A DNA stretch of 64,000 nucleotides, from IMG/VR virus record IMGVR_UViG_3300032516_000008, positions 29,092 through 93,091 of that record; one strand, 5' to 3'. This DNA is from a virus. Taxonomy: Duplodnaviria > Heunggongvirae > Uroviricota > Caudoviricetes. This document shows positions 1-39,866 of the stretch, piece by piece (position 1 is the stretch's first letter; the number at the start of each line of letters is the position of its first letter). The notes below the pieces were generated by a model. It ran no database searches. It worked only from the letters and a program-made list of their open reading frames with translations, and was not told the origin of the DNA. The position numbers were made by a program, and so were the translations under genes.

Positions 1-1293
1 CAACTAGTTAATGGAAACGTAGTTGAGTCATTCATAATTGAATCTAACGGAACATCTATAGACGTCAACGACACTAATGCTATTAACTTTTTGATTGGTA
101 TTGCACTAACAGATATAATTAGGGTTACATACAAGTATAAGAAGGCTGATCCTGCAATTTTTAGTAATCAGCCTGTTGAGTCTATAAATTCTGTTACTAC
201 TAGTACAGGCCAGATATTACAAGAAGGCACGCAGTATCTGTTTAATAAAGTTGACAACATATTGCTTACAGGTAATTCAGTAGATGCTCAGCGCAGTGTT
301 CAATTGTTATTTGATGCAACTACCGGATTGCCAGTTGGCGATTTATTTGATTACAGCGAGAACGTTAGTTTAGTTGGTCAAGAATATAAATCATTAGGTA
401 AAAAGGGAATTGACAGATACACTATTGTAGTTATTGATCTTACTGGTACTATAGTGTATGATATTAACAATGATTACGTGCTACAGATGCCGACGACGCA
501 ATTCGGCTATATTAGTATTGCTAGATCATTGTTGTCAACTATTACTGATGGTCAAACCGTTATTGTGTCGTATAAATATGGAGAATCAATCACTGTTTCA
601 TACAATGTGAATTCACTAGTCAAGATAATACAAGATAAAGTAGATGTTCGTAGGCACATCACTGCTGATGTATTAGTCAAATCAGCTAATGAAATAAACG
701 TCGACATTGAATTCACAGTTAAGCTTAGATTGAATGCTGAAAGTCCTGTAGTTATTGACACGTTAACATCTGAATTATATACATTGTTTGATCAGAAAAA
801 TATGGGTGACCGTATCAATCAGAGTGACATTATTGCAATAGCTGACAACAATAACGGTGTTGACTACGTGATAATGCCATTGACAAAAATGGCAGTGTCA
901 GACGGTACTCATATTGCTAATGAAATTATCCAATCTAACACTGTATGGACGGTTTATCAGACAGGCATAACAACATCATATAGAACTGCAAGTAATGTGC
1001 TAAGATATAGTACTGCTGGAAGTGCTAGTGACGTATCTAAGTTCTGGAGAATTAGTGCAAATGATGTGGCATTACAATTAGTAAATTCGCGTGATGATGT
1101 TGTAAATGGTTTAAGTAGAGGGTTCATCGACAGTGACGGTTCATTATACGTTTCAACTGCTGACGGATCTAATCCTGACAATTATGTAATAACTGCTGCA
1201 TACAATGTTTCAGGCGAGACAGGATCAAAAGATATCGTGGTCACTGACTTAGATTACTTGAATTTGCAATCATTAGTAATTCACACAATTTAA
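1..1293 (+). CDS. baseplate J-like (gp6/gpJ family) baseplate wedge protein, 5'-partial; the frame is open from window position 1
   Basis: The ORF 91..1293 has no stop between position 1 and 91 in the same frame, so it continues upstream of the window. Motifs resemble the baseplate J family. It sits directly upstream of the giant fibre gene. Confidence 0.5.
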   Translation, partial: QLVNGNVVESFIIESNGTSIDVNDTNAINFLIGIALTDIIRVTYKYKKADPAIFSNQPVESINSVTTSTGQILQEGTQYLFNKVDNILLTGNSVDAQRSVQLLFDATTGLPVGDLFDYSENVSLVGQEYKSLGKKGIDRYTIVVIDLTGTIVYDINNDYVLQMPTTQFGYISIARSLLSTITDGQTVIVSYKYGESITVSYNVNSLVKIIQDKVDVRRHITADVLVKSANEINVDIEFTVKLRLNAESPVVIDTLTSELYTLFDQKNMGDRINQSDIIAIADNNNGVDYVIMPLTKMAVSDGTHIANEIIQSNTVWTVYQTGITTSYRTASNVLRYSTAGSASDVSKFWRISANDVALQLVNSRDDVVNGLSRGFIDSDGSLYVSTADGSNPDNYVITAAYNVSGETGSKDIVVTDLDYLNLQSLVIHTI

Positions 1294-1306: not shown

Positions 1307-4300
1307 TTGGCAATACCTGTAACAAATAGTAATATATCCACTAGTTGGTGTACTAGCTTTTTTGCTGTCATACTAGAGACTAATGAACCCAGTCATTCGT
1401 ACTATACATTAGATGGATCAGATCCATTAATTCTCATAAATCCGTCTAGACGACTATATACTACACCGTTCATTATTGAGACTGAAGGCACGACAACTGT
1501 AAAATACTACTCAATTAGTATATCTACTAGTGAAGCAAATGCTGTACAGACTGAATCTGTCAAGATTGACGGTATTGCTCCGGTATCTACAATTCATGTC
1601 AATATCCAACCCGATGGTGAAAATGGTTGGTATCAATCACTACCGGTCATAACAATAACTGCTAATGATATTGTTTCTGGCGTTGACAAAATCTATTACT
1701 CTTGGGACGGCACTACATTCCAAGAATACTCTGTAGCTCTTACAATACCTGGTGAAGGTATTCACTATTTGCAGGTCTATGCTACAGATACTGCTAGTAA
1801 CAAAGAAGATATTCAAACTATAGTCTTCAAGTACGATAACGACGCACCGACGACTGCTATTACAGTTCCGTTAGACGTCGTTCATGTACCTGTAACTATT
1901 AACTTCACTATAACTGATTCTGCTTCTGGTCAACAGTCAACATACTATACTACAAATGGCACTACTCCAACTAGAGATTTGACGCCTGCAACATCATTTG
2001 AGATCAAGACGTCAGGTTTATATGTTGTAAAGTTCTTCTCTGTGGATAATGCTGGAAACGTTGAGACTGTTAAAGAGTCAATACCGTTTAGAGTTGAAAT
2101 TTCGACTGGTGCTTTACAAGTATTGATGACTGAAAGTTTTCCGATTAATGGTGAAAACGGTTGGTATAAATCATCACCACAAATCGGATTACTAACTACT
2201 AAACCTGACTTAGTAACTCAATTACAGTACAAGATTGCGCCTAGAAACAAACCCACAACAGCAACGTATACAAGTACTGTTCAAATCACTGGACTGATTG
2301 ATTTGTCCGGTGGTTCATTTATTGCTCTTGAGATTGATCAGTCTAATACACCAATTGTCATTAACATTCGCGGTGTAGATTCCACAAAGACGTCAATACA
2401 AGACATTATTGATCAGATCAATAATACAATTGGTGGTGATGTACCGATAGCTACAGAGACTGGTTCTGATGGCTTAGCGGGTACTGGTTATGTTACAGTT
2501 ACATCGCCAACTAGTGGTTCAGGATTATCCACATCAGAAATTAAGTTTGTAAGTCCAGGAACATATGATGCAACAGAGACTGTATTTGGTCTTAGTGTTG
2601 ACATGTATCCTCATACATTTACAGAAACGTATTTGTATGTAAATTATACTGGTCATTTTGTGCTTCCTGGTGATGGTATTTGGGAAGTAGCTGCTACTGC
2701 AAGTACTGACACTGAGACAGCAACTGTAGAGAAAGTTTATCAGTTAGATTCCACTGCTCCAGTTACTACTTTGACAGTAGTTCCAGATCATGGTAGTGGA
2801 TATTATACTACTACACCTGATATTTCGTTTTCAGCTGTAGATATTACTTCAGGTGTAAGTAAGATAATCTATCAGTTCGATGAAGATCCTACTTTAGAGT
2901 ATCATCCTGAAGATGGACCGATACAATTACCTTATACTTCAAAAGTAATTCGACTGATATATTTCTCTGTTGATGTTTCTGGAAACGTAGAAACACCACA
3001 AGAACGTCTGTTTGATTATGATTTTATTGAGCCAAGTACTGCGACTGATGCTACTGCAATTAATGCATACAATGATCTCAATATAATCTTGTCGTGGGCC
3101 CATGTAATTGAAAATAATGATTTTTATCCGATGTTGACAGATTCATTGCGACAAAATTTGACGACATATACTGATTGGTCGTCAATGATGACGTATTTGA
3201 ATGTAATGAACGTAGATTCAACTGTCAAAGTGTTTACAGCTGACGCTCTGACTAATTTTTTAACGACATCAGTGTCACATAATCTTAATACGGGTAATGT
3301 ACTACAGTTTCAAACAACGGTGCAATTGCCTGATCCGTTATTGACTGGTAGATATTACTACGCAGTTAGAATATCGGCGACTCAAATTCGAGTAGCTGAT
3401 ACTTATCGTAATGCTCTCGCAAATCATTGGATTGATATAACTAATGCAGGCATCGGTATACAGTCATTAAATCGAGCAAAACCAGAAATAGTAGTATCAG
3501 ATCCATTACGTATATTCTTGAAGCCCGTAGATGATAGGCAATATACAATAACAGATGAAATAATATCGACTAAAGATGACACTAAAAACGAACTTACGAT
3601 CGCTCATAAGTTCTTGTTTAGTGTTTCTAACGTATACAACGAAACAACAGCTACTACATTAACTGTAAGTTACATTTCTGACAACAAGATCTATACTAAC
3701 GAAGCGTTTGTAGATACTGACGTTATCAAAGTCAGTTATATCTATTGCGGCATCAGTCATGTCTATTATGCAATAAATGGTCAGCCTACAACATTATCAC
3801 CTGAAGGTACAACAATTGACCTTCTTGAAAATGGCGTTAGTACTATTAAGTGGTTTGCCGTTGATGCTGCCGGTAACACTGAAGATGTAAAAGATCTTGG
3901 TGCGACTGTTGCAATTTTGAATCGAGCTCCTGTAGTTAATGTAAGTATTGTAAAGAATACTGATTATACAGATTTCTCACCAAATGGTGATAATGGGTGG
4001 TATAGACTCGATCCATCTGATATTCCATTACGACCATCAATAAAAGCTGAAGTTTCAAGTCCTAATGTGTTTGTGTTTAATGAGCATTCTACATTAATAA
4101 GTGTGTCTGGTCCGGGACCATTCACTTGCGTATATCAAACATTACAGATCAATACGACATATGAGACACTAACTGCTGCTACTAGAGTGCAAAATAAAAC
4201 ACAGTTAGAAACATATGCTGTCGTTTCTGTGTCAGGAAATCAAATAACGATTACAGCCAATGCAGTGCCATTAATTAGTGACAATGTTGAAGTAGACTAT

Positions 4301-7300
4301 ACGTATTGTACATTGTTTGATACAGCATTAGGATCTAACGCTAAGCAAATAATTATTGGTGACATTGATGATCCTGATATTGAAGTTGACTTTTCTGACA
4401 AGACTGATCCGTTTATCTATCCTGACGATATAGTTCCGCCTATACCGTCGTATGACATACAAGGCCCGAAAGACATAACGACTATAGTAGTTGACAAGCG
4501 TGGTCGACAGACTACAAACACTTCTATACCACAATTGTCTAGTCGCAATACATTAAAGTTGGATACTAATCCGCCGATTTCAACTGATGATGCTATTAGT
4601 GGTTGGACGGTAAATAATGTCACAGTTACGATTACTTCTAATGATTATGAAGTACCGTTACCTGATCCATATCATCAGTCATCGTCAGGTACTAACAGGA
4701 TATTATATAGCACTGATGGAACAGATCCGACAATATTAGGTCCTGCATCTTCGGTCGTATTGACGCTTTCTAGTACTGGTCAATACATTGTAAAGTATCG
4801 CGGTGTTGACAATGCTGGAAATTACGAAATTATTGAAGAATCGTTGCCAGTACAGATTGACAAGACTGCTCCTGAAACTACAGTTGACGCATTGCCACCA
4901 GATGGTAATAATAATTGGTATGTGACATCGCCAAGTATAGATTTAGATGCAGTTGATCCGGATTCAGGAGTCTATCGTACATATTACAAATGGGATAATG
5001 TAATTGCTTATTCGACATATTTGTCATCATTGTTGATACCGTCTGAAGGTATTCACGTATTACACTTTTATAGTGTCGATAACGTTGGTAATGTTGAATC
5101 TGTAAAGCAGCATATTTTTAAGCTCGATACTACAATACCAATCACTACAGATAGTATAACGACAAATTGGACAAATGACGCATTACTGCAATTGACAATT
5201 GACGCTGTACATTCCAGTGTTTATCGAACATATTATGAATTTGCAGTAGATCCAATAATACCGCCTGATCCTACTACAAGTTCATCATATACTGTCACAG
5301 AAAAAATACCGTTTGCTGCAAGTGGTATTTACAACATCAAGTATTTTACAGTTGACAATGCTGGTAACGTTGAAGCTGTGAAGACTGCTTCAAATTCATT
5401 GCGATTAGATTTAGAGAAACCGGCTGTAACGTCTATAGATCCTGCAAATCTTGTATTTACAGTACAGACACATTTGACTGTGAATTTTGCTGATGCATTG
5501 TCTGGTATTGATGTTGATACTGTTAGAATAGTTGTTGACGATATTGAGTATTCTACAAGTAAGAATTCAGCATTCTTTTCATATACGGGTGTGTTACCAT
5601 ATAATACTTTGCAAGTTCAAGTTGGACCAATTGCAAGTATTCCAAATTTTCAAGATCTAGATAATGTTGTTATTTATGCTAATGATAATGCTGGTAACGC
5701 GTTAATCCCTGTTGTAGTTGGTATATTTCCGACAGATACGACTGCGCCGTATATTAGAGGGTTTTGGCCGAAGCATAAAGCTGAGGATGTGTCTAGAGAT
5801 ACAAATGTGATGATTTTCTTGGATGATGACGTGTCTGGTGTCGATTTGCGAACTGTTAGTGTTAAGATTGCAAATACTACTTACACTGTGCTTACTACAG
5901 ATGTGATAGCTGTTACTTATTCTGGTTTATTGCCGGATGTGTTTTTAGATGTGCTTGATAACAATTTGTATGTGACAGTTGGTGGTATAGTAGTTGCCAC
6001 AGCAAATTTGACGCATGATCAGTATTCAACGGTTAAGAAAGTTAGTGTATTTTTAGATGCGATACCGGGATTTACTGCGGTTGTTATTGATAAGGATTAT
6101 GATCAGATTTCAAGTTTAGAGTTCATTAATTTGTATCATGTGCAAGTGAATCCGACGTTTACAATGTTTGTGGCTAGATTTGAAGATAACAAGAATGTGT
6201 ACTTTATACCGAGAAGTCGCGGTTATCTACTTGCAATTACACCGTCAGAGACGTTTGAAGATAAGTACATGGTTAATGTGTCAGTTGATGCTAGAGATTA
6301 TAGTAACAATGTAATGACGACTGAGAATTACTTTTTCACTTGTAAAGATATAGCTACGCCGCCAAGAGAGTATAGGGATAGATGGTATCAGTATCATATT
6401 GATATTGTGAATAGGATTTTGGGTAATTTAGAGAGTACGTATAATAAGGATTCAGAGTCAACAGTGTTTTATGGTTATTTCAAGTCATTGGCTCTTGAAA
6501 TTGCCAGATCAATGCAAGTGACAGAAGATTATTCTCGTGACAATTATTATCAGCAGACACGATCAGAATTGTTGTATCAGAATTTGGGATATTTGTTGAA
6601 GTTTGAGCCAAGGGCAGATTTTTCGCATGATAGATATCGAGAAGTGTTGTTAGTGTTGATGCAGATGTTTTTCAAGGGATCAACCAAGGAGAGCTTGATT
6701 GAGGGTTTGTCAGTATTTCTTGGTGTGCAATCTGTTTCTATTCGAGAGTATTTGAATAATATAGCATGGCAATTCATGTTTTCGTTTGATGTTAATATTG
6801 GGACGATACCTATTAGAAATTGGGACGAGTTTAATGCAAATGTAACTGCAGTATTGAAATTGGTTAAGCCGGCACATACTTATTTCTTGTTAAGGTATGT
6901 ATTCTCTGAGATTATTAGGACTAAGGACATACAAGATGAGATTGTTAGGTGGGATTTTGCTTATCGTGGCACTGAAGATGTTCGCACAGATTGCGCAGCT
7001 AAATACAAGAAAGCAGAGATAATAACAGAGAACGTGACAGCTCAGTTTGATGGTACAAACAATTGTTGTTATGCATATTATAAACCGATATTGAACATAG
7101 CTGAGACAAAGATAACTACTGATCCAACAGACATCCAGCTTGTAGTTACGCCTGCTGGCCCACCGATATCTGTGATATCAGTTAACGGGTTTACTGGTAA
7201 GATATGTTTAAGTAGGAACCCATTAGTGACAGAGACTGTCAAAATTATCTACAAATTTAATAAATACGTCATATACAGAGAACTTAGATTATATACGAAT

Positions 7301-7780
7301 ACTTATACAGTTACTGCTGGTGCTTTTGATTTAACTAAGAAAGCGCTGCTGAATCAGGTTAATGTTCCTAGTGACGCAATAATTGCATATGATATTCCTG
7401 AAGGATTACATGCACATATATGCGAGACAAGAATGTTCTCAGATGTGCATTGGGGTGGACTTAACGAAATAGTTAAGAAACCTGAAGAGACATTATTTTT
7501 TAATGCTAGTGATTTTAATCACGAGCGAGTTGAGTTAGACATAAAAGAGAAAGTTAATTTTGGTATATTGGCTAGAGAGCAATTTGAGTTGCCTATTGAG
7601 CAAGTGATGATGAGATTTGCAATACCGTATCTTGAGAGTGTTACAACTGTAGATAATGAATATGGTTTTTGTCACGAAACAAATGCTCATCCGTTTACAA
7701 CAAATGATTTAGATTCTATTACTAATGAGTCTACAGATATGTTGTTCTTCTGGATTGAACGATTCTTTGGAGGATTTTAA
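1307..7780 (+). CDS. giant tail fibre/baseplate-associated protein (2157 aa) with N-terminal chitobiase/beta-hexosaminidase C-terminal domain (CHB_HEX_C)-like domain and at least 8 tandem Ig-like repeats
   Basis: TTG start with a GAGG ribosome-binding site 7 nt upstream. The repeat motif DG-x-NGWY...SGV...Y..DG...Y...G.H.....D.AGN.E recurs at least 8 times. N-terminus has a YTLDGSDP domain motif. A bacterial Ig-like domain follows near residue 1480, then about 600 aa of unknown C-terminal sequence. Confidence 0.7.
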   Translation: MAIPVTNSNISTSWCTSFFAVILETNEPSHSYYTLDGSDPLILINPSRRLYTTPFIIETEGTTTVKYYSISISTSEANAVQTESVKIDGIAPVSTIHVNIQPDGENGWYQSLPVITITANDIVSGVDKIYYSWDGTTFQEYSVALTIPGEGIHYLQVYATDTASNKEDIQTIVFKYDNDAPTTAITVPLDVVHVPVTINFTITDSASGQQSTYYTTNGTTPTRDLTPATSFEIKTSGLYVVKFFSVDNAGNVETVKESIPFRVEISTGALQVLMTESFPINGENGWYKSSPQIGLLTTKPDLVTQLQYKIAPRNKPTTATYTSTVQITGLIDLSGGSFIALEIDQSNTPIVINIRGVDSTKTSIQDIIDQINNTIGGDVPIATETGSDGLAGTGYVTVTSPTSGSGLSTSEIKFVSPGTYDATETVFGLSVDMYPHTFTETYLYVNYTGHFVLPGDGIWEVAATASTDTETATVEKVYQLDSTAPVTTLTVVPDHGSGYYTTTPDISFSAVDITSGVSKIIYQFDEDPTLEYHPEDGPIQLPYTSKVIRLIYFSVDVSGNVETPQERLFDYDFIEPSTATDATAINAYNDLNIILSWAHVIENNDFYPMLTDSLRQNLTTYTDWSSMMTYLNVMNVDSTVKVFTADALTNFLTTSVSHNLNTGNVLQFQTTVQLPDPLLTGRYYYAVRISATQIRVADTYRNALANHWIDITNAGIGIQSLNRAKPEIVVSDPLRIFLKPVDDRQYTITDEIISTKDDTKNELTIAHKFLFSVSNVYNETTATTLTVSYISDNKIYTNEAFVDTDVIKVSYIYCGISHVYYAINGQPTTLSPEGTTIDLLENGVSTIKWFAVDAAGNTEDVKDLGATVAILNRAPVVNVSIVKNTDYTDFSPNGDNGWYRLDPSDIPLRPSIKAEVSSPNVFVFNEHSTLISVSGPGPFTCVYQTLQINTTYETLTAATRVQNKTQLETYAVVSVSGNQITITANAVPLISDNVEVDYTYCTLFDTALGSNAKQIIIGDIDDPDIEVDFSDKTDPFIYPDDIVPPIPSYDIQGPKDITTIVVDKRGRQTTNTSIPQLSSRNTLKLDTNPPISTDDAISGWTVNNVTVTITSNDYEVPLPDPYHQSSSGTNRILYSTDGTDPTILGPASSVVLTLSSTGQYIVKYRGVDNAGNYEIIEESLPVQIDKTAPETTVDALPPDGNNNWYVTSPSIDLDAVDPDSGVYRTYYKWDNVIAYSTYLSSLLIPSEGIHVLHFYSVDNVGNVESVKQHIFKLDTTIPITTDSITTNWTNDALLQLTIDAVHSSVYRTYYEFAVDPIIPPDPTTSSSYTVTEKIPFAASGIYNIKYFTVDNAGNVEAVKTASNSLRLDLEKPAVTSIDPANLVFTVQTHLTVNFADALSGIDVDTVRIVVDDIEYSTSKNSAFFSYTGVLPYNTLQVQVGPIASIPNFQDLDNVVIYANDNAGNALIPVVVGIFPTDTTAPYIRGFWPKHKAEDVSRDTNVMIFLDDDVSGVDLRTVSVKIANTTYTVLTTDVIAVTYSGLLPDVFLDVLDNNLYVTVGGIVVATANLTHDQYSTVKKVSVFLDAIPGFTAVVIDKDYDQISSLEFINLYHVQVNPTFTMFVARFEDNKNVYFIPRSRGYLLAITPSETFEDKYMVNVSVDARDYSNNVMTTENYFFTCKDIATPPREYRDRWYQYHIDIVNRILGNLESTYNKDSESTVFYGYFKSLALEIARSMQVTEDYSRDNYYQQTRSELLYQNLGYLLKFEPRADFSHDRYREVLLVLMQMFFKGSTKESLIEGLSVFLGVQSVSIREYLNNIAWQFMFSFDVNIGTIPIRNWDEFNANVTAVLKLVKPAHTYFLLRYVFSEIIRTKDIQDEIVRWDFAYRGTEDVRTDCAAKYKKAEIITENVTAQFDGTNNCCYAYYKPILNIAETKITTDPTDIQLVVTPAGPPISVISVNGFTGKICLSRNPLVTETVKIIYKFNKYVIYRELRLYTNTYTVTAGAFDLTKKALLNQVNVPSDAIIAYDIPEGLHAHICETRMFSDVHWGGLNEIVKKPEETLFFNASDFNHERVELDIKEKVNFGILAREQFELPIEQVMMRFAIPYLESVTTVDNEYGFCHETNAHPFTTNDLDSITNESTDMLFFWIERFFGGF

Positions 7781-10961: not shown

Positions 10962-11425
10962 AAGATATAGAATCAGTAATCAGACCTTGTAAGAAAAAAG
11001 ACAAAGACAGTCGACCAGGCAAAGAACAAAAGGTCTGTCTATATACTAGTGACGGCTCTAAATTACTTGGTCGACATCCATCTAAAGAAAAGGCATTACG
11101 TCAAGAAAGAGCAATTCAAAAACATAAACACTCAAATACTATCAGTAAAGAATTTGCTAAAATGGCACTTAATAGAGCTACCAGTGAATGGTGGAACAGC
11201 CTATCAATTGATGAACAACGAAGACATTTGAAAGATCATCCAGGATCACACTATAGAATTCGAGCAAGAGATATTCCTATCGGAACGACGCAATTCAATA
11301 ACGGTCAATACAGATTGCTAACACATGACAAAGGTTGGATTGCATTTGACCAAGATGAACATAATGAATTAGAGGCTGAAAAAGAAAGAGTCAAATCATA
11401 TTTAGATGACAGCAGGAGCAAATAA
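10958..11425 (+). CDS. hypothetical protein sharing the W..LS..EQ..YL..HP.S motif with the 59.6-61.4 kb paralog family
   Basis: ORF with start overlapping the upstream stop (ATGA). Motif WWNSLSIDEQRRHLKDHPGS. Confidence 0.5.
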   Translation: MKDIESVIRPCKKKDKDSRPGKEQKVCLYTSDGSKLLGRHPSKEKALRQERAIQKHKHSNTISKEFAKMALNRATSEWWNSLSIDEQRRHLKDHPGSHYRIRARDIPIGTTQFNNGQYRLLTHDKGWIAFDQDEHNELEAEKERVKSYLDDSRSK

Positions 11426-16865: not shown

Positions 16866-17603
16866 ATGAATCAAAAGCGAAATTTCTTAGATCATTATTT
16901 TCGAATGTTTGAATTGTCAGAATTTGACGGTCTTCGACATGTCATAAAAGAAGAAAATAATGAACTCAAACGACATCTGCTACTAGCCAACATTCCTGCA
17001 AATTATCATTCGTTCAATTTCAATCATGTCATTGACACTTGGAGCAATGACGTTGCTAATGATGAGTCTATACAGAACTACACGCTGTATTACAATAACC
17101 TTGAAAAAGCTAGAGAGAATGGCACTGGATTGTTCTTCTCTGGTACACATGGTCTGGCAAAGACAACTGCTGCAATAGTTATTTCAATTGAAGCTATAAG
17201 ACAAAAGTTCACTGCTTATTTCATATCAATGACTGACTTGGTAGATTTCATAACTTCAGGTTGGAAAGATTACAACTTGAAATTGAAATACCAATACATT
17301 GTCACAAATGTAGATTTTCTAGTAGTAGATGATATTGGTCGTGACTATCATGTACAAACTAGCCAATCAACTCAATTTCTAGACAAATTGTTCGTCACCA
17401 GATGTAATCAAAAAAAGGTGACAATACTTACATCAATGCACGACATAACTTCATCGTCAACAATTTTCAATGAATCACTAGTAGCATTATTGAAGTCAAA
17501 TTTGATCGAGATACGACTTGTTGGATCAGATATTCGACAAGAAAAATCAAAAGTGCTTTTAGAACAACTTAGTCGAACTGGAAAAAAAGGCCATCGTGTC
17601 TGA
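16866..17603 (+). CDS. DnaC/IstB-like helicase loader ATPase
   Basis: Degenerate Walker A GTHGLAKTT and Walker B LVVDDIGRD. Located upstream of the DnaB-like gene. Confidence 0.6.
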   Translation: MNQKRNFLDHYFRMFELSEFDGLRHVIKEENNELKRHLLLANIPANYHSFNFNHVIDTWSNDVANDESIQNYTLYYNNLEKARENGTGLFFSGTHGLAKTTAAIVISIEAIRQKFTAYFISMTDLVDFITSGWKDYNLKLKYQYIVTNVDFLVVDDIGRDYHVQTSQSTQFLDKLFVTRCNQKKVTILTSMHDITSSSTIFNESLVALLKSNLIEIRLVGSDIRQEKSKVLLEQLSRTGKKGHRV

Positions 17604-19014
17604 CAAATTATTCACTGCAATAGCTAGCGAAAACAAACTACTCAAAAGTCTCATTAATCATGACACTATTGATGCGCAGGCTGCTGTTCGCAACATAGAG
17701 AAACTAATTGACAGCTGCGTCTCACCGGAATGCTTTACAACTGACTTTAGAAGTTGGCTATTTTCAACTATAATGATGCACTACCATTCGTATGCATCTG
17801 CCCTCACTATAGATCTTGTTAAGCAGAAAATAATCAAGAAGTACAAAAAAGAACAGTCAATTGCTGATGCAAAAGCACTATTTGAAAAGATACTAAACAG
17901 GAAATTTGAACAACAAGAATTAGAACCAATTGTTGACGAAATCAAAAATCTATTTCATATACGACAAATATTTGATGCTACACAGGGCGTATTATCAGAC
18001 TTGAAGTCAATTAAAGAAGGTACTAGAGATGTAAGTGCTGCACCGTTGATTCGAAAACTAGAATTAACATTAGACAAAATTAATGATCAAAGTACTCGTG
18101 ATCGTATTATTGAAGAAGATGCGTTCATGAGTGTTGATGATGATATTGCTGAAATAAAAGACAGACATGACAATCCGGAAAAATATAGAGGTGTTGAAAC
18201 TGGTATTCCTCCACTAACACTTGCTACCGGTGGATGGATGGGCGGAGATTTAATCACAGTGATGGGTCGTACAGGTCAAGGAAAGTCAATCGTACTATTG
18301 AATTTTGGATATTCTGCTTGGGAAGCCGGATTTAATGTATTGTATGTGACGATTGAGATGCCGATAATGCAGCAAAAACGGCGTCTATATTCGAAGATGA
18401 CCGGCGTTCCATACTTCAAAATGAAAAATGCCGATTTATTAACTGATGAAGAGCTGCTATATATTGAACAGAAGGTTAAAGAAGAAAGAAGCAAGCGTGA
18501 AAATGTATTCATGATTTTAGATGCACCATCAATGTGCAAAGCTAACTTCATTGAATCAAGAATTAATAGTTTTGAGAAATCAAGTGGCAAGAAGATACAT
18601 TTGATATTGGTAGATCCAATTTATTTGATGAAGCCAAATGTAGATGACGATGATCCTGTAGGTGCAATATCGTGGGACTTGAAATTGATGGGTAGAAAAT
18701 TGAATGTGCCTGTCATAAATGCTAACCAGATTAATCGTGAAGGTCACAAGAGGCATCTGCAAGGTAAAGATATGGATGCCATGGATTCGGCTAGTTCTGA
18801 TAGACTTGGTCAGAATTCGGATGTCATGTTGGGAATAATATCAGATGAACAACAATGGTTGAAGATGACAATTGTTAAGTATCGAGATGGTCGAGGACCA
18901 ACGTTGTTCCTGAAGAGAAAGTTTGATGTAATGAGTATTGAATATGATGAAGAATATAATGAGCATGACGAGATAATGAAACAAATTACAGGAGAGGCAC
19001 CGTCTGATGAGTGA
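17596..19014 (+). CDS. DnaB-like replicative DNA helicase
   Basis: RecA-fold motifs VMGRTGQGKS, YVTIEMP, ILVDPIYLM, NANQINREG. Length 472 aa. Confidence 0.8.
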   Translation: MSDKLFTAIASENKLLKSLINHDTIDAQAAVRNIEKLIDSCVSPECFTTDFRSWLFSTIMMHYHSYASALTIDLVKQKIIKKYKKEQSIADAKALFEKILNRKFEQQELEPIVDEIKNLFHIRQIFDATQGVLSDLKSIKEGTRDVSAAPLIRKLELTLDKINDQSTRDRIIEEDAFMSVDDDIAEIKDRHDNPEKYRGVETGIPPLTLATGGWMGGDLITVMGRTGQGKSIVLLNFGYSAWEAGFNVLYVTIEMPIMQQKRRLYSKMTGVPYFKMKNADLLTDEELLYIEQKVKEERSKRENVFMILDAPSMCKANFIESRINSFEKSSGKKIHLILVDPIYLMKPNVDDDDPVGAISWDLKLMGRKLNVPVINANQINREGHKRHLQGKDMDAMDSASSDRLGQNSDVMLGIISDEQQWLKMTIVKYRDGRGPTLFLKRKFDVMSIEYDEEYNEHDEIMKQITGEAPSDE

Positions 19015-19176
19015 TAAAGGACAGTTATTTGATAAGGCGGTAGTGTGTGACATAGTCGCTGCTGCGATTATTTTGTTTATGGTTGAAGAACGAAAAGAAG
19101 AAATTGATGAAGATGAAGTGGCAAACTACGTCATTAAGTCATTTCCGCGTATACTAGAAACAGTGACAGATGCTTA

Positions 19177-19836
19177 ATGTCAACAGGTGACGTTGAAGTC
19201 TTTTACTATAGTTTGTACAATGCGACACTTCTTGGTAACAGCCAAGATGCTAAAATGTTCTTGGATCTTTTACGTGATGAATTTATAGCAGATGAAAGAA
19301 ACTTTGAGACACTGAGAGCTGATGACCGCTGGAATCATTTACAACAATTATCAGCTGCTGTTGAAAATGGCTTAACTGTCAAGAATTTCAGTTACAAAGA
19401 CGATAATGTTGATGCACCAAATAAAGATGATCAGCAAGTAGCGCTTGAGAGTGACTTAGTAAAGTTGATTTGTAAAGATCCTGACTGTTTGAAACAACTA
19501 TTTGGTGCATCAGATGATTTTTACATTTACAATATAGAGCATCCAACAAAGTACGGCAAAGTAGATATTGTTGCAAAAGACGGTTTGACAGTATACGTTA
19601 TTGAAACAAAGAAAAGTCACGCAAGATTCAGCGTCGTTTCGCAGATTGACAAGTACTTGCTTGACTTCAAACTCAAACTGATTTTGAAACAATGGAACAA
19701 AATTGTCGGTGTAGTAATTGCAAACGGTTATATTGATGGTGTTGCAAAAGAGCTAGTAAAATTAGGTGTGATACCGATAAAGTATAGATACAAGAATAAC
19801 TTGTTGAGATTACGCAAATGTCGAAAAGAAGAGTGA
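19177..19836 (+). CDS. PD-(D/E)xK family nuclease
   Basis: Motif GKVDIVAKDG...VYVIETKK (D...E.K catalytic core). Confidence 0.45.
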   Translation: MSTGDVEVFYYSLYNATLLGNSQDAKMFLDLLRDEFIADERNFETLRADDRWNHLQQLSAAVENGLTVKNFSYKDDNVDAPNKDDQQVALESDLVKLICKDPDCLKQLFGASDDFYIYNIEHPTKYGKVDIVAKDGLTVYVIETKKSHARFSVVSQIDKYLLDFKLKLILKQWNKIVGVVIANGYIDGVAKELVKLGVIPIKYRYKNNLLRLRKCRKEE

Positions 19837-20004
19837 TCATTCCAGAATTGGTAACTATTGCAAATAGATTGCGTAGCCAAGGACATAGTTCAACAGCTGA
19901 TAAACTACAAGGTAAGCGAGTCATTGTAAAGCCTGCAACAATAAAAAAGACTGACACTACAGACAAAGCAGCTAAATTCAAATTTCTTTGTGAAGGAGAT
20001 TAAA

Positions 20005-21300
20005 ATGGAAGCTAAGTTGAAAAGACAGGCAACGCCGCACAAGATTAGATTAGTTGAGAGTCCTGAAGAAGTCAAAAAGCTGATTGATGTCGTCTATGAT
20101 AAGCTCAAGCCGACTATTTCAGCTAATGGTTTCAGAAAAGGTAGTGTGCCTCGTGAAGTAGCTGAGAAACAACCTCACTTCAACAAATACACTGCTTATT
20201 CAGAAGTATTTGATGTGCTGTACAAAAGAGCTCTTGAACAATTGAAGCTTGAAGTTGTTGAAGCATCTGATTTTGAAGTCGTTGGTCCATTTGAGGATAA
20301 TGTGCCATTGACAATTCAGGCTACAGTGTATTTGAAGCCGGCAGTTGAACGATTTGACATTAATGAAGTTAGTGTAGTGAAAAATGTCACGGTTGTATCA
20401 GAACAAATGGTTGATGATCAGATTAAGACAATACAAAATTCAAAGGCTTTGTTTGATAACATTACTGATTCAAATTATGTGATCAAAAACGGTGATACTT
20501 TGATCATAGATTTTTCAGGTCAAGTAGATGGCAAATCATTTTCTGGTGGAACAGCCAAGAATTTTAGATTTGTTGTTGGCGAGACTAAGTTCATTAGCGG
20601 TTTTGAAGAACAGATGGTCAAGTTTAAGTTGAATGAAGAAGGTAAGGTCATAACCAAGTTTCCTGATGATTATCATGCAAAAGAGTTGCAAGGTAAGAAC
20701 GCTGAATTTACTGTGAAGATTACAAAAATCGGTTCAAAACAGATTAAGACTATTGAGCAACTTGCAAGTGATGATGATAAGACGGTGGATGGATTTCGAC
20801 AAGCTGTTCGTGACAAACTTATTGTAGATCATGCTAAAATTGATGAAGAGAATTATGAATCTGACATTTTAACCCAATGTGTGTTGAAGGCTAAGATTGA
20901 GCCGATACCGACTGCTATGATTGAGTGGGAACTTGCTAATGAATGGCATCAGCTTATGTATCGGATGGATACAACTGAAGCAGATTTTTTGAAGAAGAAT
21001 AAGAATGGTAAGGACGTATTTTATGCTCAAAAGAGACCTCGAGTTGAAAAGACTCTTGAAGTAAAGATATTTCTTGATCATGTTAGTATGGTCAATAATT
21101 TTACGGCATCTAAGGAAGAAGTTGAGGCTTTCGTTGTTAATAGAGCTAAGACGCTGAATAAGAGTGACGAAGAAATAGAAGCTGTTCTTGAGAATTTGAA
21201 GAAGGACACAAATTATCGTGCAAGTGAAACAGCTGTTAAGCATGAAAAGGCTACTAAGTGGTTGTCTGATTCAGTAAGGAAGAATGTTGAAAACGCTTGA
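20005..21300 (+). CDS. tig: trigger factor homolog (ribosome-associated chaperone/PPIase)
   Basis: N-terminal GFRKGSVP signature, central FKBP-type PPIase region GDTLIIDFSGQVDGKSFSGGTAKNFRFVVGETKFISGFEEQ, length about 432 aa. GGAG ribosome-binding site 8 nt before the ATG at 20005. Confidence 0.75.
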   Translation: MEAKLKRQATPHKIRLVESPEEVKKLIDVVYDKLKPTISANGFRKGSVPREVAEKQPHFNKYTAYSEVFDVLYKRALEQLKLEVVEASDFEVVGPFEDNVPLTIQATVYLKPAVERFDINEVSVVKNVTVVSEQMVDDQIKTIQNSKALFDNITDSNYVIKNGDTLIIDFSGQVDGKSFSGGTAKNFRFVVGETKFISGFEEQMVKFKLNEEGKVITKFPDDYHAKELQGKNAEFTVKITKIGSKQIKTIEQLASDDDKTVDGFRQAVRDKLIVDHAKIDEENYESDILTQCVLKAKIEPIPTAMIEWELANEWHQLMYRMDTTEADFLKKNKNGKDVFYAQKRPRVEKTLEVKIFLDHVSMVNNFTASKEEVEAFVVNRAKTLNKSDEEIEAVLENLKKDTNYRASETAVKHEKATKWLSDSVRKNVENA

Positions 21301-22078
21301 TTTCAACTTATCAGCATCCACAATAAATTACTTTTGCACGTGTCCTTGGGCGTTTAAGCAAGATAAAGTGCTTAAACGCCCGACTCTTAAAGTGCCAAGT
21401 GCTCCATTAGTGCTTGGTCAAGCATTTCATAAATTGCTAGAGTCATTTTACGAACAAAAAACGTTTAGGGTATATGATCTGTTCAAAAATTGGGAGAAAT
21501 TTTTTGATATTGAAGTCAAAGTGCAAAAGGCTGAAAAAATAGAATTGAAATATGCAAGAGGCTCAGGTTTTACGCTGATAAAAAACTGGGTCGCTATGGC
21601 AAAAGAGAACGATTGGATGCATGAGTCTATAGGGTCAGAGCTTGAATTTAAGCAACCGTATAGTAATAGTAGGTTTTTGATTAATGTTCACGGGTACATG
21701 GATTTACTTATTGAAGTAAATGGTAAGATCTACATTTTGGATTGGAAAACAGGCAAACACAGTGCAGAGAAGTATAGATTGCAGGCGATACTTTACAGTT
21801 GGGCTCTTGCTAAGCAATTTGATATGATTGAAGATTGCGTGAGGTTTGTGCATCCGTCAAAGAAAGAGAATAGAATAGTTGATGTGAAAGTTACAGATGA
21901 AGATTATTACGCTGTGATGAAAAAAGTTGACAAGATGTTCGATGCAATAGAAGCAGATTGTTTTGAGAAAGTAGTAAGTGATAATTGTAAATGGTGTTCA
22001 TGGACTGATTGCCCTCATAACATTAATGAAAACGGTAAGCTTCTTGCTAAAAAAATACTAGAGGAGGACAATGCATGA
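21284..22078 (+). CDS. Cas4/RecB-like PD-(D/E)xK exonuclease with Fe-S cysteine cluster
   Basis: N-terminal CTCPW cysteine, catalytic DLLIEV...ILDWKTGK, C-terminal C-x2-C-x4-C (CKWCSWTDC). Confidence 0.65.
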   Translation: MLKTLDFNLSASTINYFCTCPWAFKQDKVLKRPTLKVPSAPLVLGQAFHKLLESFYEQKTFRVYDLFKNWEKFFDIEVKVQKAEKIELKYARGSGFTLIKNWVAMAKENDWMHESIGSELEFKQPYSNSRFLINVHGYMDLLIEVNGKIYILDWKTGKHSAEKYRLQAILYSWALAKQFDMIEDCVRFVHPSKKENRIVDVKVTDEDYYAVMKKVDKMFDAIEADCFEKVVSDNCKWCSWTDCPHNINENGKLLAKKILEEDNA

Positions 22079-22494
22079 AGATGTTACTGTCTATACTAGT
22101 ATGTAGCTCTATTGTCAGCGCGCAATTGACGCCATTAGATTCATTACTGGCTAGAAGTGCTAGATCAAAAACACTTGCGTCAGAACAGTTTGGGTTCAAA
22201 CATGTTGAATTGACTCCGCCGGCGCAATTGTTTAATGTATTACCACCGTTACCGCCATTGCCGACTGTAAATCAGTATATTACAGTTCATGAATATGACA
22301 AAGATATGGCCAATGTACAAGCTTCAATAAGTAAGATGACTACTATAATGGAGAACTTGCAAGCTCAATCTGATTCTCATCGAAACAATCTTGACATTGT
22401 CATCAAGATTATCGAAGCTTTAGTAGGTCTAATTGGTGCAGTCTCTACGCTAATCATAGCTTTCTATGGCATTAAAAAGTCAAAGAAAAAGTAG
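22075..22494 (+). CDS. small secreted/membrane-anchored protein
   Basis: N-terminal signal-like segment and C-terminal transmembrane helix followed by a KKSKKK tail. Confidence 0.4.
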   Translation: MKMLLSILVCSSIVSAQLTPLDSLLARSARSKTLASEQFGFKHVELTPPAQLFNVLPPLPPLPTVNQYITVHEYDKDMANVQASISKMTTIMENLQAQSDSHRNNLDIVIKIIEALVGLIGAVSTLIIAFYGIKKSKKK

Positions 22495-22506
22495 ATCGGC
22501 CTATAG

Positions 22507-22545
22507 AAAAAGCTGTAGATTATTGATTTCTACAGCTTTTCTCTT
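22507..22545 (+). terminator. rho-independent terminator
   Basis: AGCTGTAGA-ttattgatt-TCTACAGCT hairpin followed by a T-rich run. Confidence 0.7.
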
Positions 22546-22609
22546 GTTGTTTCTAGTAAATCTACGCCTTACAATATGACTATACTATAAGGACTAACCA
22601 AGGAGAAAC

Positions 22610-24562
22610 ATGAAGAAAAATGTCAAAGCTGAAGTTGAACGACTTGCTTCAGAAATTAGGCTTCATCGGTATCTGTACTACAACAAAGAACCTCGAATTT
22701 CAGATCAAGTCTATGATGCAATTCTTGAACTGTTGAAGCAGCTTGATCCTGAAAATCCTGAGTTGAAGAAGACCGGCGCACCGCCGGATTCTGAGAATGG
22801 TTGGCAAAAAGCCGAACATTCGATCTCAATGGCATCGCTTGCAAATGCAATGACCATTCCTGAATTCAACAAGTGGATTCAGTCAAGCGGAATTCAAGGA
22901 AAGACATTGGTTCTTGAAGACAAGTTTGACGGTGCATCGTTAGCATTGAACTATGTCAATGGCCAACTTGTGCAAGGTATAACGCGAGGAGATGGTAAAG
23001 TTGGTGATGATGTTACTGTTAATGCAAAGTTGATGAAGTTTGTCAAACAGACAATACCGGAGAAGATTACTGCAAGTCTTCGTGGTGAAGCAATCATCCT
23101 CAATGCTGACTTCGAAAAACTCAACAGTCTGCCCGGAGTGTCATTCTCAAATCCTCGAAATGCTGCAAATGGAATTCTCAAACGATTTGATGGCAAGTAC
23201 ATTGAATACGTTTGCGTGATTCTCTATGACATAGTTTCACCTGATGTTTCGTTTTCGTTTGAAACTGAAAAGCTTGATTACTTGTCTAACACGTTGGGAT
23301 TGGTAACGACCAATTACAAGTTGGTTACTCCGGCCGAAGTCATCAATGTTCGTCAACAGTATATGGATTCAGATCGAGCAAAGTTGAAGTATAACATTGA
23401 TGGTTTGGTGATTAAGCTCAACAACATCACTACGTCAAAAGAGCTCGGTATTCATTCCAATGGTGATCCCAAAGGTCAAGTGGCTTTCAAGTTTGATCCT
23501 CGAGGAGTAGCTACTACTTTGCTTGACTGTATTTGGGAAGTTGGTAGAACCGGTGTTGTTTCACCAAATGCAGTTTTGGATCCTGTGAATATTGATGGTT
23601 CGATGGTGAAAGCCGCTCTATTGTGTAACATCGATGAAATCAATCGACTTGGTGTTGGCATTGGTGATACTGTTTTGGTGATCAAAGCAGGAGAGATCAT
23701 TCCAAAGGTCGTGCAAGTCATCAAGTCTGCCGGAAAGAAAATCACAGCTCCGACAGTTTGTCCTTCATGTAAAGGACCGTTGGTGAAAGATCCTGATGGT
23801 GCATATTTGGTATGTGAAAGTGACAATTGCGTTGGTAAAGAGTTCAGAAAGCTTCGTCACTGGGTCGATGTTTTGAAGAAGCGAATGAGTTTGACTGATA
23901 TAGGAGAAAGTACAATTCGACAGTTGTATGAAAAAGACTTGGTGAAGGATCCTGCAGATTTCTACACTTTGTCAATGCAAAAAGTTGCTAGTCTTGATAG
24001 GTCAGGAGACAAATCAGCGAAGAAAATCGTTGAAGGGTTTGAAAAATGCAAAGAAATGGATGTCGTTACTCTTCTATGTGCACTTGCAATTCCTGCTCTC
24101 GGTGAGACAATGGCTGAATTGATCACTGACGAGTATGATTTGTACGCATTGATGGAAGAAGTTACAGAGACTGATTTGGCTAAGATTTCTGGTATTGGTC
24201 CTTCAAGAGCAAAGGATGTTGTTGAAGGATTGGAACAACGACGACCATTGATTGAGAAGTTGATGGGTTGTGGTATCAAGATCAAAAAGCCAGTGGCCGT
24301 TACATTACAATCTACGAAACTGCAAGGTAAGTCATTCCAAGTGACTGGTCCATTGACAAAGATTAATCCGGCAACGCAGAAAGCATACAAGCGAGAAGAA
24401 TGGTATGAGCTGGTTCAAGCGAATGGTGGAGAGATTAAGCGAGTGGGTAAAGAGTTGAATTACTTACTCGCATGTCGACCAAATAGTAACAAACTTTCAA
24501 AAGCGAGTGCGATGGGTATTAGCGTGATACCTGAAGCTGACTTTTGGAAAATGATGGAGTGA
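22610..24562 (+). CDS. ligA: NAD-dependent DNA ligase
   Basis: Adenylation motif EDKFDGAS (KxDG), Cys4 zinc finger CPSCKGPL...CESDNC, HhH region, C-terminal BRCT. Ribosome-binding site AAGGAG. Confidence 0.85.
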   Translation: MKKNVKAEVERLASEIRLHRYLYYNKEPRISDQVYDAILELLKQLDPENPELKKTGAPPDSENGWQKAEHSISMASLANAMTIPEFNKWIQSSGIQGKTLVLEDKFDGASLALNYVNGQLVQGITRGDGKVGDDVTVNAKLMKFVKQTIPEKITASLRGEAIILNADFEKLNSLPGVSFSNPRNAANGILKRFDGKYIEYVCVILYDIVSPDVSFSFETEKLDYLSNTLGLVTTNYKLVTPAEVINVRQQYMDSDRAKLKYNIDGLVIKLNNITTSKELGIHSNGDPKGQVAFKFDPRGVATTLLDCIWEVGRTGVVSPNAVLDPVNIDGSMVKAALLCNIDEINRLGVGIGDTVLVIKAGEIIPKVVQVIKSAGKKITAPTVCPSCKGPLVKDPDGAYLVCESDNCVGKEFRKLRHWVDVLKKRMSLTDIGESTIRQLYEKDLVKDPADFYTLSMQKVASLDRSGDKSAKKIVEGFEKCKEMDVVTLLCALAIPALGETMAELITDEYDLYALMEEVTETDLAKISGIGPSRAKDVVEGLEQRRPLIEKLMGCGIKIKKPVAVTLQSTKLQGKSFQVTGPLTKINPATQKAYKREEWYELVQANGGEIKRVGKELNYLLACRPNSNKLSKASAMGISVIPEADFWKMME

Positions 24563-30730: not shown

Positions 30731-31312
30731 ATGAACGAGTGGTGGGTAGGTATGTCAGCAATTGAACACGTCTATTGGTTCATTGCAGTTATAGCAAGCA
30801 CAGCATTGCTTATTCAAGCAATCTTGACATTTGCTGGTATGTCGCATGATTCTATTGACTTTCATCACGATGTGTCAAGTGGTCATGGTGACATGCAAGC
30901 TCATTTTCAATTGCTAAGTATTAGATCGCTAGTTGCGTTTTTCACAATGCTTGGTTGGAGTGGCATAGCACTAATTCATGCAAAAGGTGCATTGAACAAT
31001 CCTGTTTTGGTTGTAGTTGTATCGATTATAGTCGGTAGTGTATTTGCTGTGGTAGTTGCTGGTTTTTTCTATGGAATGACAAAGTTAGTTAGTAGTGGTA
31101 ATGTAGATATCAAAAATACGATTGGTCGAACAGCTAGTGTTTATTTGAAAATTCCTGCTAATATGTCAGGTACTGGAAAAGTGAATGTCATGATTCAAAG
31201 TCAAGTAAGAGAATTTGATGCCATGAGTAAAGATCTTACGGCAATTCCGTCAGGGTCACCAGTAAAAGTAGTAGATGTCCAAAACAATACTTTAATCGTT
31301 GAAAGGGGCTAG
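30731..31312 (+). CDS. YqiJ/NfeD-like membrane protein
   Basis: Two N-terminal transmembrane helices plus a C-terminal OB-like soluble domain. AAGGAGGG ribosome-binding site. Lies immediately upstream of the flotillin gene, as in the yqiJK operon. Confidence 0.55.
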   Translation: MNEWWVGMSAIEHVYWFIAVIASTALLIQAILTFAGMSHDSIDFHHDVSSGHGDMQAHFQLLSIRSLVAFFTMLGWSGIALIHAKGALNNPVLVVVVSIIVGSVFAVVVAGFFYGMTKLVSSGNVDIKNTIGRTASVYLKIPANMSGTGKVNVMIQSQVREFDAMSKDLTAIPSGSPVKVVDVQNNTLIVERG

Positions 31313-31313
31313 T

Positions 31314-33574: not shown

Positions 33575-33589
33575 ATGATTACTACTAAT

Positions 33590-39233: not shown

Positions 39234-39866
39234 TCAGGTCTGTTGTCGAAGATTTGACGCTAACCATTTTTTTGCCTCTTGACTAGTGTATATCTCATTG
39301 TTATCAATTATCTTACAAAATTGTTCGTATGAAATCTTTGGGAAAGCATGAATCGCTGAATCTAGTGAAACATTGTAGATTTTAGATGGACAATCTTTAT
39401 AGACATCAAATCTAGCATTGCCTCGTATATAGACCATTTCATCTTGTGTACCGCGATGTACAATGTCATGAAAGTGACTCTTATCATTAACAAATCGTCC
39501 ATCAAATCCAAGCAGATAAATCTCTTTGAATTTCAAAGCTATACCTAGCGATAATGAGAATAGTCCAACTAAATACGGATGATACAGTCCTTTTGACAAC
39601 CCGTCTAGTCCATGATATTCTTTTGCTGATAATAGCTTGAATACGTCTGCTGGCACATCACGACTGTCTCTTGTGATTTTAACGCATTTGAGGTTGTTTA
39701 TTACTTGCTGATGTTTAGAGTAGAAATCTCGATCAATCCAGATTAGTGCTGTGGGATCGTAATAGTGGCAAACGAAATTCAAACCAAATGTGAACTCATG
39801 ATTGAGCTTAGCTAAGTCAAATCCTTTTATGCTTGATCCGCCGCCGATGATTACTAATCTATTCAT
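39234..39866 (-). CDS. Cst-II-like (GT42 family) sialyl/nonulosonic-acid transferase-like protein
   Basis: RLVIIGGGSSIKGFDL matches Cst-II VIIAGNGPSLKEID. LGIALKFKEIYLLGFDGRF matches Cst-II ALGYKEIYLSGIDFY. A conserved NDKSHFH region is present. Confidence 0.5.
   Translation of the reverse strand: MNRLVIIGGGSSIKGFDLAKLNHEFTFGLNFVCHYYDPTALIWIDRDFYSKHQQVINNLKCVKITRDSRDVPADVFKLLSAKEYHGLDGLSKGLYHPYLVGLFSLSLGIALKFKEIYLLGFDGRFVNDKSHFHDIVHRGTQDEMVYIRGNARFDVYKDCPSKIYNVSLDSAIHAFPKISYEQFCKIIDNNEIYTSQEAKKWLASNLRQQT

Follow-up and report, generated by a model that had tools for sequence, protein, structure and literature searches.

A Trigger Factor Gene among the Replication Genes of a Probable Large Contractile-Tailed Phage

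Can a tailed phage supply its own trigger factor, the chaperone of the ribosome exit, and what would it use it for? The question is raised by a gene at positions 20005 to 21300 of a 64,000-nucleotide stretch of DNA (the window; positions 29,092 to 93,091 of IMG/VR record IMGVR_UViG_3300032516_000008, filed under Caudoviricetes). An earlier note, made from the letters of this DNA, had described the gene as a full-length trigger factor homolog that might assist folding of two very large proteins (2157 and 958 amino acids, aa) of the same window. The protein, called Tig here, belongs to the trigger factor family and has its three-domain architecture, its fold, and its conserved docking motif and peptidyl-prolyl isomerase (PPIase) pocket. 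By every test it is an ordinary Tig; what is new is its carrier, the conserved phage lineage to which it belongs, and its genomic slot. Judged from the sequence, the gene probably provides a large contractile-tailed phage with a functional trigger factor, which would aid large phage proteins at the host ribosome.

The Gene and Its Protein

The open reading frame (ORF) runs on the + strand from an ATG at 20005 to a TGA stop at 21298-21300 and encodes 431 aa. The full-length ORF of the earlier note is thus correct, and its count of 432 aa includes the stop codon. Initiation at a GTG at 19990 would lengthen the protein by 5 residues; the ATG was favoured because a Shine-Dalgarno sequence lies just upstream of it and the TAA of the preceding ORF ends at 20003. 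Motifs of this kind occur upstream of 22 of the 43 window genes versus 8% of random positions, a frequency that indicates Shine-Dalgarno initiation in the host. The GC content is uniform over the gene and its flanks, at about 0.37. The features of the gene are as follows.

20005..21300, + strand, Tig coding sequence (phage trigger factor), 431 aa plus TGA stop; from the ORF, Pfam, TIGR00115, AlphaFold2, and Foldseek
19993..19998, + strand, Shine-Dalgarno AAGGAG, read from the sequence, 6 nt before the ATG
20005..20439, + strand, predicted N-terminal ribosome-binding domain, about residues 1-145 (Pfam Trigger_N)
20128..20151, + strand, trigger factor signature GFRKGSVP, residues 42-49, aligned to E. 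coli GFRKGKVP
20440..20739, + strand, FKBP-type PPIase domain with its hydrophobic pocket intact, about residues 146-245 (Pfam FKBP_C)
20740..21297, + strand, C-terminal chaperone "arm" domain, about residues 246-431 (Pfam Trigger_C), all-helical in the model

Three Pfam hidden Markov models matched Tig over nearly their whole profiles, and coverage was not confined to the FKBP domain: Trigger_N (1.7e-18, residues 10-142, profile 11-143 of 144), FKBP_C (2.7e-14, residues 160-239, profile 5-93 of 94), and Trigger_C (4.9e-15, residues 260-421, profile 1-161 of 162). The NCBIfam equivalog TIGR00115 "tig" gave 237.4 bits against a cutoff of 180.2 (E 2.5e-70, profile 10-409 of 410), and the Pfam and TIGR00115 scores are far above chance. 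When PDB sequences were searched with phmmer, residues 36-405 aligned with residues 37-399 of the E. coli trigger factor (7.5e-26). An AlphaFold2 model, computed from a 14-sequence alignment of the clade described below, had a mean pLDDT (predicted local distance difference test score) of 87.8 and contained no low-confidence segment. The first Foldseek match of this model in the PDB was 2vrh_A, the E. coli trigger factor on the translating ribosome (E 1.9e-23, 433 columns), and further full-length trigger factors were matched in 1w26_A (E. coli), 1t11 (V. cholerae), and chloroplast TIG1, with those of T. maritima (3gu0, 3gty) at template modeling (TM) scores of about 0.6 (0.60-0.63 for 3gu0). 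Domains, equivalog, alignment, model, and structural matches agree with the earlier description of a full-length homolog co-linear with bacterial Tig.

The functional residues were followed at two depths. Within the 14 clade sequences, which are 46-85% identical to the window Tig, G42, F43, R44, G46, P49, and R50 are invariant, and the first five of these are conserved at levels of at least 80-90% across the 150 top Tig matches. The FRK residues of the corresponding E. coli loop dock on ribosomal protein uL23; E. coli mutants with FRK changed to AAA lose ribosome binding. F179, I197, F200, Y223, and F235 are likewise invariant in the 14 sequences and conserved among the 150 matches, and they align with E. 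coli F177, I195, F198, Y221, and F233 in the phmmer alignment. Position 170, aligned with E. coli F168, is F or Y in the clade (F170 in the window). These six E. coli residues form the FKBP PPIase pocket, with F198 serving PPIase activity.

Codon alignments of the gene with homologs from four other contigs were analyzed by the Nei-Gojobori method. The ratio of nonsynonymous to synonymous substitution rates (dN/dS) came to 0.08 in the pair of 85% identity, whose dS was 1.03, and to 0.11 in the pair of 72% identity; synonymous sites were saturated in more distant pairs. By domain, dN/dS was 0.07-0.09 for the N-terminal, 0.06-0.11 for the PPIase, and 0.11-0.12 for the C-terminal domain. Purifying selection therefore acts on all three domains, and the whole protein is maintained, not one domain alone. 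These values bear on the proposal that only the PPIase activity matters, Tig being a prolyl isomerase for particular phage proteins and its N- and C-terminal domains being dispensable. The host FKBP SlyD is needed by the lysis protein E of phiX174, the pocket of Tig is fully conserved, and its PPIase domain shows the lowest dN/dS (0.06). However, the N- and C-terminal domains are under similarly strong selection (0.07-0.12) and are full-length in all clade members, and the PPIase activity is dispensable for E. coli trigger factor function in vivo. We consider this proposal very unlikely.

The Carrier

Membership of a viral database is by itself insufficient for phage identity, since the Hodor megaplasmids (211-389 kb), which encode a trigger factor, were earlier filed as huge phages (2026 preprint PMC12934698). 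The window starts inside a gene whose frame is open from base 1.

1..1293, + strand, C-terminal part of a baseplate wedge protein

The product of positions 91-1290 shares 76% identity with the C-terminal end of an ORF of 1178 aa on a related 126-kb contig (locus L018, IMG/VR UViG_3300031707_002715). This ORF matches the baseplate wedge subunit phrog_6 (1.7e-32), and Pfam Baseplate_J matches the product of window positions 1-1293 itself (22.9 bits against a cutoff of 21.1). The same contig carries a Tig 72% identical to that of the window. PHROG scans of nine large ORFs upstream of its baseplate gene gave almost nothing; one step further, at locus L021, a tail sheath gene (phrog_2839, 6.1e-33) appeared along with one for a tape measure protein (phrog_24, 8.1e-10). 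From these matches we conclude, with a small residual doubt, that the carrier is a contractile-tailed phage, and the earlier claim that the trigger factor is phage-encoded is upheld.

Alternatively, the carrier could be a conjugative megaplasmid of the Hodor kind. The Hodor elements have a trigger factor and giant proteins; their trigger factor is co-transcribed with a class B sortase beside SecYEG, the plasmid being conjugative and devoid of the large terminase (TerL), and the authors propose that it chaperones giant secreted proteins (PMC12934698). An FtsK/SpoIIIE-like ATPase, downstream of the baseplate gene, and the 2157-aa protein are also present in the window, and no terminase or capsid gene occurs in the sequence examined. 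Against a megaplasmid stand the baseplate wedge of the window and the sheath and tape measure of the related contig, as well as the tRNA arrays, RtcB, and homing endonucleases of the window and the inteins of its relatives, which are typical of huge phages. No sortase or Sec family was recorded on the flanks of Tig in the window and in the relatives with readable flanks (up to 8-10 kb, shorter where the contig was short). A Hodor-like carrier is highly improbable on this evidence. Among the roughly 40 window ORFs scanned, most of them with PHROGs only, no Rep_3, ParA/ParB/ParM, or type IV secretion family was seen. The two cases resemble each other in that a Tig is carried by a very large mobile element encoding giant proteins and the same chaperoning role is proposed. 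They are set apart, by description, by a plasmid with a sortase/Sec operon in one and by a carrier with baseplate, sheath, and tape measure and a replication-module location in the other.

The Phage-Type Lineage

A word-indexed search recovered 16 clade proteins, 47-100% identical to the window Tig, from different samples and on contigs of up to 335 kb. The identical protein is present on four independent contigs. Four IMG/VR contigs of 126-416 kb also count toward phage identity, and relatives with the same Tig reach 326-416 kb. Identity is at least 47% inside the clade and then drops sharply, the best bacterial Tigs (Clostridiales-type) reaching about 31%. When 1.84 billion cluster representatives were searched exhaustively with a profile, more distant relatives (P0121-P0141 and others) formed a graded series that ranked ahead of the mass of bacterial Tigs. 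When the two most conserved peptide motifs of the clade were scanned against 185,579 GTDB species genomes, 74 pattern matches were obtained and no relative was among them.

All phage-type Tigs formed one group in a neighbor-joining tree of 57 sequences (bootstrap 93/100; window clade 98/100), for which an E. coli sequence in agreement with the PDB alignment over residues 37-399 served as outgroup. With the 150 top matches, analyzed as unrooted splits with no outgroup, the smallest split that held every context-verified phage Tig had 39 members (bootstrap 40/60; window clade 59/60). Both analyses used simple distance methods on a biased sample, that of top matches only. The phage-type group is also marked by residues of its own: P11 is found in 95% of its members versus 0% of bacterial Tigs and a one-residue insertion, P300, in 95% versus 1%, and W314, L318, E325, E327, and K336 of the C-terminal arm are shared within the group and not by bacterial Tigs. 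These sequence data support, and do not prove, a single ancient acquisition by a phage ancestor. They indicate that the gene is not a recent pick-up from a host and that it belongs to an old phage-type lineage about 25-31% identical to bacterial Tigs. The phylogeny proposed earlier as a guide to the host was for this reason uninformative, and we dropped host inference from the Tig tree because even the nearest bacterial Tigs have such low identity.

The same data speak to the possibility that the gene is host DNA, through a chimeric assembly, contamination, or very recent passage. In its favor, most "phage" Tig matches in the databases proved to be just that, with clpP and/or clpX motifs right after tig in the GenBank UNVERIFIED records H4, H6, and H7; tig-clpP-clpX is a common bacterial neighborhood, typical and not defining. 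Here, however, the identical protein stands on four independent contigs and the clade comes from different samples, phage replication genes keep their order around the gene, bacterial Tigs reach about 31% identity at best and the GTDB motif scan yielded no relative, and the GC content does not change across gene and flanks. Neither a tig-clpP-clpX arrangement nor ClpP/ClpX motifs were found in the window or the readable phage loci. We regard this explanation as effectively refuted.

How rare is such a gene? No viral protein with the Tig fold was found when BFVD was searched with Foldseek (best E 0.05). Megablast of window positions 17000-24000 against 50,697 GenBank phage records gave no match, and there is therefore no close cultured relative in that collection. 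Tblastn of Tig against the same records matched 29, all below 36% identity. Four of these GenBank "phage" Tigs were inspected and rejected as evidence for phage Tigs: all four records are flagged UNVERIFIED, and three have ClpP/ClpX motifs directly after tig and are bacterial DNA, whereas no such motif was found in the fourth (Enterococcus). PHROG 26774 ("unknown function") matches Tig at 9e-47, scoring below the generic bacterial model, and was probably built from mislabeled bacterial sequences. Full-text literature on phages, jumbo and huge phages included, yielded no description of a phage trigger factor, the sole related item being PMC12934698. The rarity asserted in the earlier note thus agrees with the fold search, the inspected records, and the literature. 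Automatic annotation at the Joint Genome Institute (JGI) labels some clade proteins "trigger factor"; as far as we found, then, the gene has been seen by pipelines and no discussion of a phage Tig exists in the literature searched. The trigger factors listed as "phage" in GenBank-derived phage collections are likely, almost without exception, to be mislabeled bacterial DNA.

Three records labeled "Bacteriophage sp." or "Staphylococcus phage", MT835572.1, MT835536.1, and OR844993.1 (loci L023, L026, and L024), are flagged UNVERIFIED and have tig followed by clpP and/or clpX; they are thus bacterial chromosomal DNA within a phage collection.

The Replication Module

The gene is tightly packed among replication genes. 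The module runs in the order DEAD helicase, DnaC-like loader, DnaB-like helicase, NucS_C-like protein, Tig, PD-(D/E)XK nuclease, and NAD-dependent ligase, with the following members around Tig.

16866..17603, + strand, DnaC/IstB-like helicase loader (phrog_50, 4e-18; PF01695 in most relatives with context)
17596..19014, + strand, DnaB-like replicative helicase (phrog_19, 1.6e-60)
19177..19836, + strand, NucS_C-like nuclease-fold protein, 219 aa (Pfam NucS_C, 1.5e-05, 25.4 bits against a cutoff of 24), between the DnaB-like helicase and Tig
19818..20003, + strand, small ORF, 61 aa, separated from the Tig start by 1 nt
21284..22078, + strand, PD-(D/E)XK / Cas4-like exonuclease (phrog_69 and phrog_1218, about 3e-23)
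22610..24562, + strand, NAD-dependent DNA ligase of the same module (phrog_3869, 1.7e-152)

Similar arrangements were observed in the relatives. The helicase family PF03796 lies upstream of Tig in L001, L003, L006, L008, L013, L014, and L017, and the nuclease family PF12705 immediately downstream in L001-L003, L006, L008, L009, L013, L014, and L017. The 3' end of Tig overlaps the start of the nuclease by 17 nt in the window and by 4-8 nt in three relatives, and a gene of 56-75 aa takes the place of the 61-aa ORF in three relatives. Genomic context could be read for eight more distant proteins; the contigs of P0134 and P0187 were too short to judge. Identities below are to the window Tig.

P0008, 53%: DnaC-like, DnaB-like, (small genes), Tig, PD-(D/E)XK nuclease
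P0003, 72%: slot as in P0008, with an OrfB_IS605/TnpB gene inserted between the DnaB-like helicase and Tig
P0015, 47%: slot as in P0008, then NAD ligase
P0126, 34%: slot as in P0008, then DnaG-type primase, NusG-like, helicase, 5'-3' exonuclease, gp32-like
P0130, 31%: slot as in P0008, then primase, NusG-like, helicase, exonuclease, RecA-like
P0123, 34%: DnaB-like, Tig, PD-(D/E)XK, then NAD ligase, primase, NusG-like; an upstream IstB/DnaC family was not recorded
P0143, about 26%: PD-(D/E)XK nuclease nearby, small uncharacterized ORFs around
P0186: dUTPase after Tig, then a run of small ORFs

The slot of DnaB-like helicase, Tig, and PD-(D/E)XK nuclease is present in six of the eight contexts and is kept down to 31-34% identity. 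All contexts with enough flanking sequence are phage-like.

Other observations were made around this slot. The gene after the nuclease in the window (22075-22494) encodes a 139-aa protein with an N-terminal signal-like sequence, a C-terminal hydrophobic helix, and a weak MotA_ExbB match, and a gene of 80-148 aa takes the same place in L005, L006, L008, and L009. On the contig of L006, a 72%-identical relative, IS605/IS200-type elements lie on both sides of the Tig-nuclease pair, which they do not separate; positions 8620-9669 and 12396-13813 hold an OrfB_IS605/TnpB gene, whose TNB domain is Cas12f-like, and a Y1 transposase. The replication module of this contig is inverted relative to its tail module.

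The Proposed Function

E. coli trigger factor mainly helps large multi-domain proteins. For the phage protein, we propose that Tig would be expressed at the same time as the replication genes (early or middle) and that its GFRKGSVP loop would dock on uL23 at the exit tunnel of the host ribosome. There it would shield emerging phage polypeptides and delay their folding, adding to or replacing the host trigger factor during heavy synthesis of big multi-domain proteins. The expected outcome would be a higher yield of such proteins at the peak of late synthesis.

Candidate clients exist, although only one of the two named by the earlier note is probably structural.

1307..7780, + strand, 2157-aa protein with CHB_HEX_C and immunoglobulin (Ig)-like domains, a candidate client only

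This protein matches Pfam CHB_HEX_C_1 (9.8e-18) and Fn3_assoc (3e-10), has homologs of 2163 aa (L018) and 2784 aa (L014), and from its sequence is probably a tail or fiber protein. The proteins of the tail module measure about 1093, 1178, 1194, 1882, and 2160 aa. The description of the 958-aa protein as structural was not borne out, since it belongs to the replication module and gave no match in Pfam, PHROG, or the PDB. That Tig would fold the 2157-aa and 958-aa proteins is a plausible suggestion.

The gene of the 958-aa protein (window 11425-14301) lies between the FtsK-like ATPase and the DEAD helicase, and its size and position are kept in all relatives (969, 997, and 999 aa). Its resemblance to proteins of other huge phages is confined to the N-terminal third, which matches gp211 of Bacillus phage G, a protein of Tunturiibacter phage Tunturi_5 loosely annotated as "tail fiber", and one of the uncultured phage LR745208 (485 kb). 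These sequence matches link the phage distantly to known huge phages.

Several results weigh against the proposal of a general phage trigger factor. Tig lies in the replication module and does not adjoin the large virion genes proposed as its beneficiaries. Phage-type Tigs are far less acidic than bacterial ones, with a net charge of about -7 versus about -30, and conserve arm residues of their own; both traits could point to a change of function. The promoter scan was at chance (37 found, 37.9 expected). No TerL, portal, or major capsid gene was detected in the window or in the approximately 30 kb walked upstream on the related contig. The terminator scan was at chance as well (4 found, 6.2 expected), and we drew no operon from either scan for that reason.

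Some of these results would fit a Tig that has been repurposed, acting mainly off the ribosome as an ATP-independent replisome assembly chaperone for the DnaB-like helicase and DnaC-like loader, or acting against the host by competing at the exit site with host trigger factor or the signal recognition particle (SRP), thereby biasing the ribosomes in favor of phage proteins. A precedent for the first role is phage lambda, whose replication depends on the host proteins DnaK, DnaJ, and GrpE for the release of DnaB from lambda P. The helicase/nuclease slot is conserved over 31-85% identity with reading frames overlapping or abutting, the net negative charge is far smaller than that of bacterial Tigs, and the lineage has its arm cluster of P300, W314, L318, E325, E327, and K336. 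In addition, the T. maritima trigger factor was solved as an assembly chaperone with a ribosomal protein, as the titles of 3gty and 3gu0 state. On the other hand, the docking motif is conserved as in bacterial Tigs, which is unexpected for a purely off-ribosome role; gene order may reflect shared expression timing alone; and the lower acidity may come in part from the AT-rich, Lys-rich composition of the gene. We consider a repurposed Tig, the leading alternative, unlikely.

A wider form of this idea is that an ancestor of a wide range of huge contractile-tailed phages acquired the gene a single time in the distant past, after which it specialized within a phage-only lineage integrated into the replication module and came to do more than supplement host chaperones. 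Tig might then take over the uL23 exit site, displacing host trigger factor or SRP and conditioning ribosomes for phage polypeptides, or it might serve specifically in assembling the helicase, loader, and nuclease machinery encoded alongside it. Such specialization would show in the lower acidity and in the arm residues peculiar to the lineage. We put this forward tentatively, as a possibility. The general role at the host ribosome, aiding large phage proteins, is the function that we favor.

Comparison with Known Systems

Similar to the E. coli (1W26, 2VRH) and T. maritima (3GTY) proteins, the phage Tig has the usual domain order, the length (431 versus 432 aa), the GFRxGxxP motif, the pocket, and the fold. 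It differs from them in being about 22% identical to the E. coli protein and about 25-31% to the nearest bacterial ones, in its location between a DnaB-like helicase and a PD-(D/E)XK nuclease instead of the common tig-clpP-clpX neighborhood, in being far less acidic, and in its own residues (P11, the P300 insertion, and the W314 cluster). Chloroplast TIG1 (7ZGI; Foldseek ranks 7-8) is likewise a Tig of the same fold outside free-living bacteria, but it is nuclear-encoded, inherited by endosymbiosis, and not virus-borne.

Phages are known to carry chaperonins and co-chaperonins, such as the GroES-like gp31 of T4 and, in phage EL and other jumbo phages, GroEL-like proteins. These are likewise phage-supplied versions of a general folding helper of the host; they belong to a different family, however, and form a post-translational ATP-dependent cage, whereas Tig is co-translational and ATP-independent at the ribosome exit. 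Huge phages also carry tRNAs, aminoacyl-tRNA synthetases, IF1, IF3, S1, S21, and L7/L12 (Al-Shayeb et al. 2020, PMC7162821); the main text of that study mentions neither trigger factor nor any chaperone. Those genes share with Tig the theme of redirecting host ribosomes, to which the window adds 16 tRNAs and RtcB; Tig would act on the nascent chain and not on initiation or decoding. A co-translational chaperone of the ribosome exit is not known to have been on the list of phage-borne helpers (GroES/GroEL types, tRNAs, initiation factors, and a few ribosomal proteins) and would extend the takeover of translation by huge phages to the folding of the emerging chain. It is no one-off, being a conserved lineage under purifying selection in large phage genomes from many samples. 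The protein is concrete and clonable for testing the specificity of the trigger factor-ribosome interaction, and the gene may serve as a marker for this phage group.

Other Features of the Window

ARAGORN found 16 tRNA genes in the window, 15 of them confirmed by Rfam, in two arrays (49054-52971 and 62859-64000). The tRNA at 52898-52971 has a CTA anticodon of the amber-suppressor type (ARAGORN "Pyl"; Rfam tRNA score 69 bits). Amber recoding in the window was considered and rejected, as TAG ends 10 of the 53 ORFs and the ORFs are intact under code 11; the tRNA could be relevant to late genes outside the window. The approximately 1.5 kb before the second array (61389-62858) contain no ORF of at least 100 aa and no Rfam match at gathering thresholds.

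An RtcB RNA ligase gene (55715-56878; phrog_1075, 1.8e-119) is flanked by HNH endonuclease genes at 49197-50438 and 54842-55714. In a 335-kb relative RtcB contains an intein (L003 18410-20839), and intein-containing helicases are present in L006, L008, and L013. An NfeD-like and SPFH/flotillin pair (30731-32708) and a PolX-type polymerase with pol beta palm/thumb and PHP domains (33575-35248) are unusual phage cargo. The sole minus-strand block (39234-48596) has a lower GC content (0.33-0.35) and encodes a 1128-aa radical-SAM and glycosyltransferase fusion, a sialyltransferase-like protein, and several methyltransferases; such a block may be an island for the modification of sugars, nucleic acids, or peptides.

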